From assembly GCA_043767805.1 (NCBI GenBank), contig JAYUGC010000167.1, positions 1 through 51,868 on the forward strand: 51,868 nucleotides of DNA, given 5' to 3'. The notes beneath the pieces are model-generated. The model was not told where the DNA came from and did no database searches. It saw nothing but the letters and a program-made list of their open reading frames with translations. The translations under genes and the position numbers were made by a program. This DNA comes from Pseudomonadota bacterium (lineage in GTDB: Bacteria > Bdellovibrionota > FAC87 > UBA2466). Every line of letters begins with the position of its first letter. The stretch's first letter is position 1. Shown here piece after piece: positions 1,966 to 6,934 of this stretch.

Positions 1966-2889
1966 ATGAAAGCCCGGCTCATCCTTTTCGCCTTTTGTCT
2001 TTCGTTCGCAAGCTCGCTTGCCCGCGCCGATTACGGCTGGATCCCTGAGTACAAAAAGCTCGTCACCCGGTTCGGCCTGGACGTTTTTAAATCGGAATCG
2101 AATTATGACACGACGGGCGCCATCGTGGCGCTCCCTTCGAACGGCCAGCTAAGCGACACCATCCTCAGTTTGAGCGCGGAATATGGGCTCGCCGAGAGCT
2201 GGTCGCTCGGCATGGATTTGCCATTTTATATTTCTTCTTTGGATTCGCCGACGTCGCGTCTTTTGGCGGGTACGGGGCTCGGCGACATCACGACTCACCT
2301 CAAGTGGGCGGTCAAACCAGTCACGCCGATCGTGACGCTCGAGCTCCTCTTGAAATTTCCGTCGGGCTCGAGCGGAGTCGGCACAGGCAACCTTGCTCTC
2401 GGCGAAGGCAATTTCGACATGGGGCTTTTCCTGCACTCCGGTCATCGCAGCGGGCACTTCATGTTCTCATTCTCCCCGGGCTTTCTCGCGCGCTTCGGCG
2501 GGTACTCCATGGCGGCCGCCGGCGAATTTGCGTTTCAGTTCATGTTTCCTCGCGGTTATTTGCGGGCGTTCGGACTCGGCATCTATTCCTTTCAAGACGT
2601 TCCCGGCTTTGACTCTTCCATTTCCTCCCACGACGCCTCGGGGTCGGGCGGATCTTACGCGCGCTTGAACGCGAGCCCCGTGGGCTTTGCCATCGGCGGC
2701 AAGATTGGCTTGAACATCACCAAGGCCGTTGCTTTGGAGTTCTCAGGGACGAAAGCCATCTTGGGAAGCAAGTACGCCAACTACTTCAAGGCGGGCGGCG
2801 ATATCGTCGTCGAGTTCGACTTCTTCGAGATGCCCAAATCGATGAAGGCAAAAGAAGTGCCTTTCGATTTCGAGTACGAAAAGTATTAG
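1966..2889 (+). CDS. Exported protein, probable outer-membrane beta-barrel/transporter family
   Basis: Signal peptide (LARA|D), GLGDI and LKFPSG..LGEG motifs, alternating amphipathic beta-strands. Confidence 0.65.
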   Translation: MKARLILFAFCLSFASSLARADYGWIPEYKKLVTRFGLDVFKSESNYDTTGAIVALPSNGQLSDTILSLSAEYGLAESWSLGMDLPFYISSLDSPTSRLLAGTGLGDITTHLKWAVKPVTPIVTLELLLKFPSGSSGVGTGNLALGEGNFDMGLFLHSGHRSGHFMFSFSPGFLARFGGYSMAAAGEFAFQFMFPRGYLRAFGLGIYSFQDVPGFDSSISSHDASGSGGSYARLNASPVGFAIGGKIGLNITKAVALEFSGTKAILGSKYANYFKAGGDIVVEFDFFEMPKSMKAKEVPFDFEYEKY

Positions 2890-4785
2890 CTATTGGATGG
2901 TGCGGGGGTGGCGGGTGCTGCCTTCGGACTCGCCGTCGCGCTGTTTGAAGATTTTCTTGAAGTAGTCGCCGTTCAAAACGCTCTCGATGGCGGCGCCCGC
3001 TCTCGCGGCGACGGTGTCGCGCTTATTGCTCTTAGAGCCGTCTTCCTTTTCCGGGCCGCCTTGATTTTCGCCGTCCGCGGGTAAATCTCCCGTGACCTGA
3101 GATGGGAGGGCCGAGGCTCCGCCCGCACTGAGAAGCTGTCCGCCCACTTGAGTGCCCCCCTCCGTGCCGTAAGATCCGGCTTGAACGGAGGCTGGTCGTC
3201 GGGTTCCGTCTTCAAACACGATGGTCGAGCCCGTGTCGCGGCTATCGTCTTCGGCACGGGGACGGGCTCCCGAACGAGATCCGCCGCCATCTCCTTCAGA
3301 GCCACCGGGACTGTCCGTTACTAAAAGCCGATTGCGGACGGTGCTTCCGTCCTCGAGCTCACGACGGCCCGATTCAATCGGCGCGGGCGGGCCAAAACCA
3401 CCCGAAGTGCCGGCACTCTTAGCTTCCTGTTTATGGCCGCCGCCGTTACCGAGCATCGCCGTCGCGCCGATATCCGGATTAGAAGCGGCGGGCGCCCGCG
3501 AGCCGCCGGCGGTTCTCGCCGCCGAAGCCGCAAGTCCTGAAGGATCTCCCGCGCCGGCCCCAGCACCCCCGCCACCGCTTTTTCCCGCGACGGCACCGCC
3601 CGGCGGAGCTGGATTTGGTTTATTAAAAAGCGGCTTGCCACCCCCGAGGTCATAAAATTTTCCCGTTTTGGGAGGCAGGGCGTAGTACTCGCGGTCTTCT
3701 AGATATTTCCAGCGGCCGTCGTTATCGAAAGCGGACTCACGCATTTTTTCGCAACCGACGTCGCTCCAGCCGGGTTGAGGATTGGAACCGGCCGAGGCGT
3801 AACCTTCAAAATCTTCACCCGTGCCGTTACCCGCACCCGTTCCCGGAGGAAGGCCAAGCTCGGTTTGTCCGAGAGCGGCGGCGACGTCCGCGGAAGATCC
3901 TCCGGCGACACCAAAAGCCATGCCGTCGGCCTTGCCCGCCCAACGTCCGGTATTTCTCATGCGAGATTCCAAAGAATCGCCGACATCCCATCCCATTTCG
4001 CCGCAAGCGGGAATGTCTTTGGGATTGGCCCCGGGAGCATTGCACAACGAAAGGCGAGTGCTCGGATTTCCCGTGACGAGAATGACGCTTCCCCGGTTCA
4101 CGCCAAAGCGGCCGAAACCGTCGGTGGCGTTACATTTTGATTTGGCGTTTTGTTTCAGGGTTCCGACGCCGCCATTCGCGCCCGAGACGAAAACCGGATA
4201 GGTGATGAGGTTCACGTTGCATTTAGCGGCCATGTCCGTAAGGTCTTTCGTAATCTGATTGGGATCTCCGCCCGTACCATCGAAGAAAAGACAAAGCGGG
4301 TACCATTTGTCGAAAGCGACGGGTTTCGCGCGCTGACCGGAATTTTTCGTGGGGGGCCCCTGGTGCCGAGCGCCGCCTTCCCCTAGACGATCGTATTGTC
4401 CGGCCTCGACGGATTTTTTCTTCGGTTGTTTATCGTCGAAGACGACTTTGGTTTCGACGGCACCCGCTGCCGCCTGGGCCGCGCCTTTAGAGACAGAGAC
4501 CGGAACGGGAGATTGCGGCTTGAGAGTCGTAATCGCCGAGAGGGCGCTCGCGGCGCCGCTTGCCGTGGTGGCCGCGGGTATCGGGTCCGGTTCTGGAAAT
4601 TGGCTGGGGGCTTCCTCTTCGGAAGCTTTCCCGGGAGGCTGTCCGGCCCAATTGGAAACTTTGTTGCGGACGGATTGAAAGAGGCGATCGAGCGTGAGCG
4701 GCGCATTCGCAGGGGTCGGCACCGGCGGGGGCGTTTCCGCCTGCGCGAGTGCCGCGAACATTAAAATGATTACCCCCAAACGCAT
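2890..4785 (-). CDS. Secreted Gly/Ser/Pro-rich protein with Cys-containing core; apparently catalytically dead paralog of 4788-6893
   Basis: Signal peptide MRLGVIILMFAALAQA; core motifs AFDKWYPLCLF, AAKCNVNL and GWSDVGCE shared with the neighbouring gene. Confidence 0.85.
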   Translation of the reverse strand: MRLGVIILMFAALAQAETPPPVPTPANAPLTLDRLFQSVRNKVSNWAGQPPGKASEEEAPSQFPEPDPIPAATTASGAASALSAITTLKPQSPVPVSVSKGAAQAAAGAVETKVVFDDKQPKKKSVEAGQYDRLGEGGARHQGPPTKNSGQRAKPVAFDKWYPLCLFFDGTGGDPNQITKDLTDMAAKCNVNLITYPVFVSGANGGVGTLKQNAKSKCNATDGFGRFGVNRGSVILVTGNPSTRLSLCNAPGANPKDIPACGEMGWDVGDSLESRMRNTGRWAGKADGMAFGVAGGSSADVAAALGQTELGLPPGTGAGNGTGEDFEGYASAGSNPQPGWSDVGCEKMRESAFDNDGRWKYLEDREYYALPPKTGKFYDLGGGKPLFNKPNPAPPGGAVAGKSGGGGAGAGAGDPSGLAASAARTAGGSRAPAASNPDIGATAMLGNGGGHKQEAKSAGTSGGFGPPAPIESGRRELEDGSTVRNRLLVTDSPGGSEGDGGGSRSGARPRAEDDSRDTGSTIVFEDGTRRPASVQAGSYGTEGGTQVGGQLLSAGGASALPSQVTGDLPADGENQGGPEKEDGSKSNKRDTVAARAGAAIESVLNGDYFKKIFKQRDGESEGSTRHPRTIQ

Positions 4786-4787
4786 TC

Positions 4788-6893
4788 CTACCTCACGATG
4801 GCGCGCTTATCCGCGCTCGTGCGGCGACTGCCGCCTTCTTGCACCACGGCCGGCCGACGCTCGCGGGCTGCTTCGGCCCGTTGGCGATCTTGGTCCGCTT
4901 GTCCCAATTCATTGAAAAAGTTTCCGTCGAGCTGGCTCGCGGTCGGGGCGCCCGCGGGAATGACTTTCATCGCGCTGCCTTCAGCGGCAATGCTTGTCCC
5001 GGAGCCGTCTCCTTCGCCCGATCCTCCGCCGTAATTCGTGTAACCACCGCTGCCCTTTTTGGCGCCGTCGTCGAATCCGACCGAGGTGCGACCGCTGCCG
5101 ACGGACGCAGGGCTGCGGCCACCGCCGTTAGACGCGTTTGCAAATTCGCTCACGCGGCCTGAGGTGCCGTAGTCCGTATATTTGCCGGCTCCTTTTTTCG
5201 CGCCGTCATCGAAAGTCACGCGCGCGGAAGAAACTCCGCTCGTCGAGGGGCCAGGAGCGTTTTTTACGAAGACATCGGAACCCGGCGGCTGCTCACCGCC
5301 TTTGGAATCAGACGGCGGTTCCGCGGCTTCTTTCAAATTTTGCACGAGCTCACCGACAACACTTCCGGGTTGTTGTCCCTTGTGGCGACCCGTTGGGCCC
5401 ACGACTTCTTTTTCCGGCGTGCCGGTGGGAGTCGTGGGCGGCTTGCCGTCGTCGCCAAGCTTCGGACGCGCTTTGGAAACCGTGTCGTCGAAGGCGACTC
5501 GGCCCGGAGTGCCTCCCGGCTCTTGCGGCGTGATGGGGCCGGCCATGGGAGGTCCGTTTCTTGGGCCCCTGACCGTTTTACCGCTATATAAATTCCACTG
5601 CTTCGAGGCGTCTTTTACCTCGGTGTAATAGGTGGTTCGGTTCGGATCCCACTTCCAGCGGCCCGAGTTTTTAAAACCGTTTCTGTGAAGCGCTTCGCAG
5701 CCCTCGTCAGACCAGCCTCCGCTCTCCTCACCGCCTTGAACGGTTTTGTTCAATCCAATACCGTTACCGTCGGAAGCGCCATTCGGATGCCCGAATTGAC
5801 TATGACCAATGGCTTCGTGGCCCACAACTCCCGCATTACACGAACCCTTGTCTTCGATGGAGGGTGCCACGCCGCTCGTTGTGGCGCCGCCCTCCAAGGA
5901 TCCGTCTCCTTTTATTTCCTCTATACGCGCTTTAGCCTCGGCTGCTGCCTTGACGTCTTCGGGCGTCGCATTGGGTTGAGATGGGCGATCAACCAGGGCC
6001 TGAAGCCCCGCCATAAACTTTCTAACTACTTCCTTTTCGGCGTCGTTACTCTGAACCTGGGCACAGCCTCCCGTTCCCGTGGTGTGCTCACCGTCCGGCC
6101 CGCACTCCTTGCCCTTCGGAGGGTTGGGTCCCTTCACACATTTTTGCTTGCACATTTTGTCCGCCATCTGGCTATCGTTCACGCAGATTGACGTGGAGGC
6201 TCGGTTCGCGTTATCGAGGCCCGCAAGATTACAAGCCGCTCTTTGTTGGTTGTTCGTCGTTTCGGGATCTCCCTTCGCATAACCGTTGGGACTCACGGTG
6301 ATCGGGAAAACAACCAGGTTCACTTTGCATCTGGCCGCGTCGTCCACCATGCCCTTGATCGCGGCATTGGCACCGCCTTCGGATTCAGCTTGCGGGTCGA
6401 TGAAAAGGCACATGGGGTACCACATGTCGAAGGCTTGCGAAGATCCATTGGTGCTGATCACGCTGCCGGGCGAATTATCTAACCCAGCCGTAGGATCATC
6501 CATATTGAACTCGTCCGTCTTTTTCTGATTTCCGCCCCCGCTGTCCGAACCATTTCCAGAGCTGGCACCGCCAGAGGAAGCCGTCGAATTGGCCCCGTTA
6601 GAATTTGAACTGCCTCCGCGATTCCCGCCCGTGCCGCCATTTCCATTACCAGCGCCAGAACCGAAAGCAGTTCCGCTTCCGTTGGCGTTTCCCTGTCCTT
6701 TTGGGCTGCTCATTTTGATGTCGGGATTGACCCAAGCTTTGGTGCGGACCCAGTCGAAAAGTTTGAGGCGAGCGTCGTTGAGCTCTTGCACGATTCCCGG
6801 CTTTGGCTCGGGATCGGCCGCGCGCAGATCGACGCAAAGGATGAGAGCAGTGGCTAGGCCTAGGGTAAAAATGTGGTGTCGCTTAGGTCGCAA
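4788..6893 (-). CDS. Secreted Gly-rich protein with putative zinc-metalloprotease (metzincin-like) core
   Basis: Signal-peptide-like N-terminus; HEAIGHSQFGH at 5787-5819. Start moved to TTG 6893 (GGGGA upstream) because TTG 6923 lies inside the sigma54-type promoter. Confidence 0.8.
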   Translation of the reverse strand: MRPKRHHIFTLGLATALILCVDLRAADPEPKPGIVQELNDARLKLFDWVRTKAWVNPDIKMSSPKGQGNANGSGTAFGSGAGNGNGGTGGNRGGSSNSNGANSTASSGGASSGNGSDSGGGNQKKTDEFNMDDPTAGLDNSPGSVISTNGSSQAFDMWYPMCLFIDPQAESEGGANAAIKGMVDDAARCKVNLVVFPITVSPNGYAKGDPETTNNQQRAACNLAGLDNANRASTSICVNDSQMADKMCKQKCVKGPNPPKGKECGPDGEHTTGTGGCAQVQSNDAEKEVVRKFMAGLQALVDRPSQPNATPEDVKAAAEAKARIEEIKGDGSLEGGATTSGVAPSIEDKGSCNAGVVGHEAIGHSQFGHPNGASDGNGIGLNKTVQGGEESGGWSDEGCEALHRNGFKNSGRWKWDPNRTTYYTEVKDASKQWNLYSGKTVRGPRNGPPMAGPITPQEPGGTPGRVAFDDTVSKARPKLGDDGKPPTTPTGTPEKEVVGPTGRHKGQQPGSVVGELVQNLKEAAEPPSDSKGGEQPPGSDVFVKNAPGPSTSGVSSARVTFDDGAKKGAGKYTDYGTSGRVSEFANASNGGGRSPASVGSGRTSVGFDDGAKKGSGGYTNYGGGSGEGDGSGTSIAAEGSAMKVIPAGAPTASQLDGNFFNELGQADQDRQRAEAARERRPAVVQEGGSRRTSADKRAIVR

Positions 6894-6918
6894 GGCTATC
6901 CCCCGTCCCCGTTTAGTT

Positions 6919-6934
6919 TGCAAGGGGGGTGCCG
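6919..6934 (-). promoter_or_regulatory. Sigma54 (-24/-12) promoter for the secreted paralog pair
   Basis: Minus strand CGGCACCCCCCTTGCA: GG-N10-GC, close to the TGGCAC-N5-TTGCW consensus. Confidence 0.7.

Follow-up and report, generated by a model that had tools for sequence, protein, structure and literature searches.

We analyzed a stretch of DNA of 51,868 nucleotides (the window; contig JAYUGC010000167.1 of assembly GCA_043767805.1) from a bacterium placed in the Bdellovibrionota. On its minus strand lie two adjacent genes, here called A (upstream) and B (downstream), whose products look exported and share a cysteine-rich core of predicted metzincin-like fold. A carries an expanded HExxGH motif on the predicted active-site helix, and B lacks the corresponding His and Glu residues. 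A reading made earlier from the sequence alone (the original prediction) had proposed a metzincin-like enzyme beside a paralog lacking every putative zinc ligand. Here we ask what the family, the predicted structures and related genomes say about this pair. Throughout, motif-bearing copies are called active and motif-less copies dead, and residues of A are numbered on its 711-residue form, P0001.

A tandem pair of exported-looking paralogs

The features of the pair are listed below.

4788..6893, minus strand: gene A, exported-looking protein of predicted metzincin fold with HExxGH, 701 residues (open reading frame list, translation)
6819..6893, minus strand: signal-peptide-like N-terminus of A, MRPKRHHIFTLGLATALILCVDLRA/ADP, residues 11-35, with a basic n-region, a hydrophobic core and the ending ...DLRA/ADP (by eye)
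6444..6818, minus strand: N-terminal low-complexity linker of A, residues 36-160, 66% G/S/P/A/N/T, no Cys (composition)
5547..6470, minus strand: core domain of A, residues 152-459 of P0001, predicted metzincin-like fold, 10 Cys (AlphaFold2 model, structural matches)
5907..6044, minus strand: helical hairpin insert of about 45 residues (core residues 143-188 of A), between the sheet and the strand preceding the motif helix (models, alignment gaps)
5781..5819, minus strand: putative metal-binding and catalytic motif of A, HEAIGHSQFGHPN, residues 369-381 of P0001 (H369, E370, H374, G378, N381) (alignment, model)
4791..5555, minus strand: C-terminal low-complexity tail of A, with G-R-H514-K, three (V/A)FDDxxxK repeats (478, 571, 617) and LDGNFF near the C-terminus (sequence, alignment A3)
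4786..4787, minus strand: junction of 2 nucleotides between the end of the A stop (4788) and the ATG of B (4785) (sequence)
2890..4785, minus strand: gene B, exported-looking paralog without the His, Glu and His, P0002, 631 residues (open reading frame list, translation)
4738..4785, minus strand: signal-peptide-like N-terminus of B, MRLGVIILMFAALAQA/ETP (by eye)
3604..4353, minus strand: core domain of B, predicted metzincin-like fold, 6 Cys at six family-invariant positions (model, alignments)
3844..3882, minus strand: degenerate motif of B, AAALGQTELGLPP, residues 302-314, aligned to HEAIGHSQFGHPN of A (BLASTP, multiple alignments)
2893..3615, minus strand: low-complexity tail of B

Preceded by a G-rich stretch, the TTG at 6893 is the likelier start of A, as read from the sequence of the start region, and gives 701 residues; the longest frame (4788..6923, minus strand, 711 residues) runs from an upstream in-frame TTG at 6923. 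A database protein of 701 residues, P0003, is 100% identical to A from TTG 6893. BLASTP aligns A with B in two blocks (A164-275 with B157-262, 33% over 115 positions, E 2e-13; A371-459 with B304-395, 35% over 93, E 3e-11), a likeness well beyond chance by which the two sequences are paralogs. The original prediction had described two co-oriented paralogous genes 2 bp apart with signal-peptide-like starts, low-complexity flanks and a Cys-rich core, and in this it was confirmed: all the shared-core peptide strings that it quoted are present in both translations, the flanks are 55-66% G/S/P/A/N/T with zero Cys, and Cys is confined to the cores (10 in A, 6 in B). The signal peptides, of Sec type, were judged by eye, as was a lipoprotein signal in A, which we rejected since no lipobox was seen.

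Tight spacing is a property of the family and not of this locus alone. In 11/11 tandem pairs the downstream start lies between -4 and +4 nucleotides from the upstream stop, and the same range holds in 9/9 pairs of an active and a dead copy. A scan for promoters and terminators around A and B returned nothing informative. The sequencing runs listed for the locus are 4 DNA runs from one sediment-metagenome study, with no RNA run among them.

Predicted fold of the cores

AlphaFold2 modelled the core of A (308 residues) with a predicted local distance difference test (pLDDT) score of 93.3 and a predicted template modelling (pTM) score of 0.91 from a 114-row alignment, and the core of B (250 residues) with a pLDDT of 94.1 and a pTM of 0.92 from a 118-row alignment. 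The catalytic domain of metzincins comprises a twisted beta-sheet, an active-site helix and a C-terminal helix. In the model of A, the strand PSIED (core residues 201-206) leads into a helix (213-226) that bears H369-E370-A-I-G-H374 and ends just before G378.

Foldseek found nothing in the PDB for the core of A at E<=1e-3, its best rows being ADAMTS-1 (E 8.8e-3, probability 0.97), snake-venom metalloproteinases, ADAMTS-4/5 and fragilysin; the fold assignment rests on VIA-align. Run against 48,161 representative chains, VIA-align placed 18 chains at Z>=8, and rows 1-29 are metzincin-type metallopeptidases by title, except for 6o38, whose title is silent. They are led by the archaemetzincin-like 3lmc (Z 9.5, 3.6 Å, 144 aligned residues), and the scores for other metzincins in the same run were ADAM10 (Z 9.3), ADAM8 (9.3), AmzA (9.1), ADAMTS-1 (9.1), ADAMTS-13 (9.0), TACE (8.9), atrolysin (8.8), ulilysin (8.2), fragilysin (7.7), mirolysin (7.4), PAPP-A (6.8), matrix metalloproteinases (5.5) and astacin (5.1). 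When the Foldseek top 1000 chains were realigned in the same way, acutolysin A reached Z 10.2 (3.7 Å, 154 of 197 residues), ADAM8 Z 9.7 and ADAMTS-5 Z 9.5, and the 63 chains at Z>=8 were all adamalysin, ADAM, ADAMTS or archaemetzincin. The core of B drew the same list, with archaemetzincin 2x7m at Z 9.5 and ADAM8 at Z 8.1.

Top scores of Z 9.5-10.2 stand only moderately above the best Z of 7-8 that is common for unmatched models, and since Z alone is modest the fold call also leans on the homogeneity of the list, on coverage of the whole catalytic domain and on the placement of HE..H on the corresponding helix. The metzincin-like fold of the original prediction is thus upheld by structural alignment (Z up to 10.2 for A and 9.5 for B) and is left without a Foldseek match at the threshold used. 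On these models, the cores of A and B are metzincin-like, and more precisely adamalysin/archaemetzincin-like, in fold.

The helical hairpin insert of A occurs in genera g1 and g4; it is missing in B and in most relatives, and its structural matches, at Z ~5, are to unrelated coiled coils.

An expanded motif at a putative zinc site

A word-indexed protein search with the core of A found 12 proteins, including P0003 from the window itself. A profile built from 35 cores (alignment A2) matched 170 representatives at E<=1e-3, and 120 at E<=1e-30, among 1.84 billion cluster representatives. The HExxH signature of metzincins is present in A with one extra residue, as HEAIGH on the predicted helix, and is absent from B, which reads AAALGQ. 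Among the 148 relatives with the motif region aligned, 75 have HExxGH, 39 have HExxH and 34 have neither, the last figure including a few degenerate rows such as HQSMHA and two (P0122, P0146) that are possibly misaligned.

H369, E370, G373 and H374 are each found in 75/75 HExxGH relatives, and the His, Glu and second His are likewise invariant in 39/39 HExxH relatives, which makes 114/114 motif-bearing relatives overall. Within the HExxGH group, G378 is kept in 70/75 and P380 in 66/75. In metzincins the third ligand comes three positions past the Gly that ends the helix. By this spacing, the third-ligand place in A falls on Asn381 and not on H379: G378 is the fourth residue past the second His and Asn381 the third past G378, an arrangement that departs from the extended metzincin motif HExxHxxGxxH/D. 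Asn381 is kept in 73/75 HExxGH relatives, with His in the other 2. H379, which we rejected as the third ligand, is conserved in only 17/75, its position being taken also by W (17), K (13), M (9) and others. The original prediction had read the site as HExxGHxxxGH with three His ligands and had expected these residues to be conserved in orthologs; the first two His and the Glu bore this out, and the third His did not.

A further candidate for the third ligand is Glu357, in the preceding "SIED" strand, which co-varies with the six-residue motif (56/75 HExxGH relatives and 0/39 HExxH relatives). The residue that follows the motif as a conserved hydrophobic position is Ile389 (74/75), and M412 (46/75) lies within the helix. 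Six Cys are invariant or nearly so in the multiple alignments, in active and dead copies alike, and the even Cys counts of the cores (10 in A, 6 in B) fit disulfides. On these grounds we rejected a Cys as metal ligand of the TldD kind.

A census by regular expression over 154 family identifiers gave the following forms.

Canonical HExxHxxGxxH: 2 (P0137, P0154)
HExxHxxGxxN: 4
HExxHxxxGxxN: 1
HExxGHxxxGxxN: 68
HExxGHxxxGxxH: 2
Other HExxGH: 5
HExxHxNCCGxxC: 20
Other HExxH: 14
No motif, including fragments without the region: 38

Given this graded series, the family looks like a metzincin lineage with a remodelled site. Because A keeps the zincin catalytic helix in the expanded form HExxGHxxxGxxN, it is most likely a secreted or periplasmic metallopeptidase, as judged from the model and the alignments. 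H369 and H374 would bind the metal, E370 would act as the general base, G378 would end the helix, and Asn381 (or E357) would sit at the place of the third His or Asp ligand of metzincins.

A conserved paralog without the motif

In B, the alignment replaces H369 by A302, E370 by A303, H374 by Q307 and N381 by P314, while G306, G311 and P313 are kept, just as the original prediction had it for the loss of zinc ligands and the retention of scaffold Gly and Pro. We fetched family loci across the order to which the window belongs and scanned them for dead copies. The dead clade occurs in 14/35 family genomes, adjoining an active copy in 9 and unlinked in 5, locus counts that leave out further matches at G004:C400, G020:C176, G014:C671, G014:C125 and G008:C186. 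The arrangement of an HExxGH gene followed directly by a motif-less gene is found in 9 genomes from 4 genera, namely the genome of the window (G000) and G001 (g1); G004, G014, G020 and G024 (g4); G009 (g9); and G010 and G017 (g10). On a second G014 contig a motif-less gene lies behind a truncated family fragment. In each of the 5 g12 genomes, the syntenic slot is occupied by an HExxGH gene and the motif-less copy is at another locus, which in the two annotated cases (L035, L070) lies between a metallo-beta-lactamase-fold gene/BrkB and a gene for a pyridine-nucleotide disulfide oxidoreductase.

Motif-bearing copies alone are present in 20/35 family genomes, two of which (both f2) have a tandem pair with HExxH in both genes; G002 falls in neither class, since its profile match (E 4.5e-17) was not recovered in the open reading frame and hidden Markov model scan of L064. 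Every genome with a dead copy also holds an active one, in an order where 35/38 genomes have the family anyway. The expectation that active and inactive copies stay adjacent is therefore correct for 9 genomes in 4 genera and fails for the 5 with an unlinked copy and the 20 without one.

The dead copies have a single origin in our trees. The motif-less rows of a 35-row tree form one group with support 99/99 (L035 is labelled HEEVDH there from a regular-expression match outside the motif, elsewhere in the protein), and a 54-row tree has a branch, supported at 99 in the Shimodaira-Hasegawa-like approximate likelihood ratio test (SH-aLRT), with all 15 motif-less rows on the same side of it. This fits one old loss, followed by retention. 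The g12 dead copies (L035, L069-L072) sit on very long branches, of 1.0-2.2 changes per column.

Retention is also visible in the genes themselves. Each of the 10 adjacent dead copies (9 genomes, 4 genera) has an uninterrupted frame that begins with a signal peptide, and the 5 unlinked g12 copies have open frames. For B, the ratio of nonsynonymous to synonymous change (dN/dS) is 0.03-0.11 in the 3 pairs with computable dS, where dS is near saturation (1.9-2.2). Between genomes, amino-acid identity is higher for the B core than for the A core in 4/4 pairs (0.72 v 0.58, 0.91 v 0.54, 0.82 v 0.66 and 0.67 v 0.49), two of the four being less clean comparisons that involve g4, where orthology is muddled because G014 has two B-type copies. 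The sequence record thus agrees with the inactive paralog of the original prediction, and marks B as a conserved, selectively retained pseudo-enzyme and not a decaying gene. G014 itself (77% complete, 710 contigs) has 7 profile matches, with L022, L023 and contigs C558, C671 and C125 among the loci; its two B-type copies group with different relatives, and it is possibly a mixture of two strains.

Family range and genomic slot

We found the family in only one order of the Bdellovibrionota. Its profile matched 35/38 genomes of the order of the window and 33/201 genomes in a phylum-wide sample (29/32 in f1, 3/4 in f2), and it matched none of the 164 genomes of 26 other families in that sample. 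Related loci in public records belong to metagenome-assembled genomes of uncultured Pseudobdellovibrionaceae or Bdellovibrionota, and the family members looked up there are called "hypothetical protein" where any name exists. That neither protein would belong to a named family, as first proposed, agrees with the lack of any Pfam or NCBIfam match. Below threshold, Pfam matches among the 35 family cores, which agree with the predicted fold, were to Reprolysin_5 in 2 (best E 0.023), Reprolysin_3 in 2 (0.23) and M64 in 1, and none of the 35 reached the curated threshold of Reprolysin or Reprolysin_2-5. Leads from the ESM Atlas (M85, M26 and M10 clusters; score <=0.83) were weak and were not used as evidence. 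Literature on Bdellovibrio metzincins, judged by titles and abstract openings, included nothing on this family; titles on HEXXGH/HEXXXH motifs named M49, TldD, tubulin carboxypeptidases and others, and no metzincin family with HExxGH. We know of no description of the A/B family, in a search that had MEROPS outside its range.

Across f1 and f2 the locus is syntenic, with YajQ, RimO and an outer-membrane-protein-like gene of 307 residues on one side and LptF/G and RarA on the other. In the window, the 307-residue gene (1966-2889, plus strand) is convergent with B and abuts its stop. Its product starts with a signal peptide and ends in an aromatic residue, as in outer-membrane beta-barrels, and Pfam gave no match for it. 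The gene flanks the family slot in nearly all f1 and f2 loci that reach that side, at 26-69% identity (tblastn), and in those loci that were read through it is the nearest neighbor there.

The genome of the window holds a third, unlinked paralog with HESLHSNCCG, on contig C2 (L040 4042-5775, plus strand). This third type, in which HExxH is followed by a Cys-rich HSNCCGxxC, also occurs in L018 (G001) and L073 (G027) and in 20 protein-library representatives; its core is shorter, with the profile match split into two stretches, and its motif could indicate a different or second metal site. In f2 genomes (L037, L038), the tandem pair occupies the same slot as A and B and has HExxH in both genes (HEVQH...GxxN upstream, HEIGH downstream). 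Both f2 genes fall in the HExxH clade, apart from the dead copies, which suggests a separate duplication or activity retained in both copies.

The low-complexity tails contain short conserved elements. A His in the context [DE]x[RK]-H-[KR][KR], about 55 residues past the core, is present in 107/111 filled rows of alignment A3, in active and dead copies alike. FDDxAxKG units occur three times in A (478, 571, 617) and, in weaker form, twice in B (116, 524), and LDxxFF lies close to the basic C-terminus. Judged by sequence, these motifs resemble sites for docking or processing, set in linkers that look disordered.

A proposed function and its alternatives

We propose that A and B belong to an unnamed family of disulfide-rich, Sec-exported proteins with a core of ~250-300 residues and a metzincin fold, in which A would be a secreted metallopeptidase and B its retained non-catalytic partner. 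B would descend from one ancient duplication in which the His, Glu and His were lost, and would be translated from the same message as A, starting 2 nucleotides past the A stop. Under stronger purifying selection than A, it would most likely serve A in targeting, regulation or scaffolding, by binding either A or the target of A and so modulating, aiming or stabilizing the enzyme. We put the probability of this composite explanation at roughly 0.6. Its first part, a metzincin-fold enzyme plus a conserved dead paralog, we consider quite probable in its own right. A physical complex of A and B is more tentative, and we would bet slightly against it. Bolder still, and unlikely, is a reading in which the metzincin family is new and restricted to a single order of Bdellovibrionota, has a site rebuilt on an HExxGH helix one residue longer and on Asn or Glu357 in place of the third His, and forms in several genera a secreted heterodimer whose more conserved subunit, the dead paralog, supplies substrate or surface recognition.

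Several observations weigh against the proposal. No Pfam or NCBIfam model matched A or B even at E<=1, and a profile search of PDB sequences gave only a chance match, to a shark antibody domain at E 0.46; the Foldseek result and the modest Z scores given above point the same way. Asn is an unusual zinc ligand. Among the 75 HExxGH relatives there is no conserved Met between N381 and the C-terminal helix, which leaves no evident Met-turn of the classical kind. We infer the geometry of the site, including the convergence of H369, H374 and N381 on one point. The partner is not obligatory for the family, because most genomes have no dead copy and g12 has an unlinked one, and the unsure g4 orthology affects half of the identity comparisons between A and B.

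There is a different view of B, in which A is a metallopeptidase and B works apart from it, with a non-catalytic job of its own (binding of a surface or prey ligand, action as a decoy, self-protection) and a tandem position that is merely ancestral. The dead copy stands unlinked among housekeeping genes in the 5 g12 genomes, and A-type proteins work alone in the 20/35 genomes that lack it; the stronger conservation of B would also fit a separate function. A precedent is given by catalytically dead ADAMs that have independent roles, as reviewed in PMC11266112. Against this, the tight junctions of all nine active/dead pairs point to coupled, equimolar synthesis. The constant presence of an active copy wherever a dead one occurs also argues for a connection, weakly, as nearly the whole order has the family. 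We regard an independent B as unlikely.

It is also conceivable that the metzincin-derived fold no longer houses a peptidase, and that the HExx(G)H metal serves another reaction, such as that of a cell-wall amidase or glycopeptidase, or a structural role, in which case the labels active and dead would be wrong. A shared fold is no proof of function, the third ligand would be neither His nor Asp, and the Met-turn Met is not conserved. The restriction to one order and the fixed slot between lptF/G and the outer-membrane-protein-like gene in most loci would suit a role in the envelope. What counts against a non-peptidase is the invariance of the His-Glu pair and second His in every motif-bearing relative and the survival of canonical HExxHxxGxxH in two of them. 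To our knowledge, all zincins use the Glu that follows the first His as their catalytic base. This reading seems to us quite improbable. Finally, the idea that B is a duplicate in decay, on its way to becoming a pseudogene and with a likeness to A that has no functional meaning, accords with its loss of all catalytic residues and is contradicted by its intact frames with signal peptides, low dN/dS, conservation above that of A, six invariant Cys, confidently predicted fold (pLDDT 94.1) and membership in a single old clade, and we give it almost no weight.

If A is active, as the proposed enzyme-partner pair would have it, it would define a peptidase family that current family libraries miss and that has no PDB relative by sequence, and the metzincin motif would be extended in two ways, by the six-residue HExxGH and by Asn at the third-ligand place. 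Forms that lie between the canonical and the expanded motif survive among the relatives and provide a natural series for the study of zinc-site remodelling. The pair would offer a clear bacterial example of an enzyme whose pseudo-enzyme paralog has been retained and is the more strongly conserved of the two, and the existence of genera with the enzyme alone, with an adjacent pair or with an unlinked pair makes the role of the dead copy testable by comparison. Exported hydrolases are central to the life style of predatory bacteria, and the hosts of this family are their uncultured relatives. We do not claim a link to predation for A and B; in sum, we take the family to be one of metzincin fold in which the zinc motif was rebuilt and a pseudo-enzyme paralog was kept.

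Comparison with known systems

The original prediction had likened A and B to TldD/TldE. TldD has the motif HExxxH on a distorted helix with Cys454 as third ligand and is active only with its ligand-less paralog TldE, and the fold of both is stated to resemble no other known protein (PMC5810440). Like TldD/TldE, A and B combine a catalytic subunit with a six-residue motif and a ligand-less paralog of the same fold, encoded by co-occurring genes. In contrast to TldD/TldE, whose fold is unrelated, A and B match metzincins; their core Cys are even in number (10 and 6), whereas TldD uses a Cys ligand; and TldD needs TldE, whereas most family genomes have no dead copy. A and B drew no Pfam or NCBIfam match, to PmbA_TldD or any other model, and no TldD/E chain is among the structural matches listed for them, which does not exclude such a fold outside the listing. 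The analogy is apt in form, and fails on the fold and on the many genomes without a dead copy.

Dipeptidyl peptidase III (M49) shares with A the same hexapeptide, HEXXGH. The enzymes of M49 are cytosolic exopeptidases, large and two-lobed, that carry a further motif, EEXR(K)AE(D). This further motif is not in the sequence of A, and M49 chains are absent from the structural matches listed for A, a fold outside the listing not being excluded. M49 does provide a precedent for variation in motif length, as HEXXGH and HEXXH variants coexist within it according to two reports (PMC5805324, PMC9820243).

Archaemetzincins (M54) are the top or near-top structural matches of both cores (for A, 3lmc at 9.5, 2x7m at 9.1 and 3zvs at 9.0; for B, 2x7m at 9.5) and show the same compact metzincin core. 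The M54 motif comes with a Cys-rich second metal site, which is not present in A or B, and M54 enzymes are cytosolic, whereas A and B carry signal-peptide-like starts. The third paralog type (HESLHSNCCGxxC) has Cys after its motif.

The closest counterparts of A are the adamalysins/reprolysins (M12B: snake-venom metalloproteinases, ADAMs and ADAMTS), which are its best structural matches and cover the whole catalytic domain. A differs from them in its motif, HExxGHxxxGxxN instead of HExxHxxGxxH, in having no conserved Met-turn Met and in matching no sequence model; A and B have no pro-domain or disintegrin domain and carry long low-complexity linkers on both sides, with a hairpin insert in A. 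Like M12B proteins, A and B appear exported and disulfide-rich, and in A the HE..H lies on the corresponding helix, with a Gly turn after it. Some members of M12B are catalytically dead, and one of these, ADAM22, is itself a structural match of A. The review cited above for dead ADAMs (PMC11266112) also covers the alpha/beta heterodimers of M16 peptidases.

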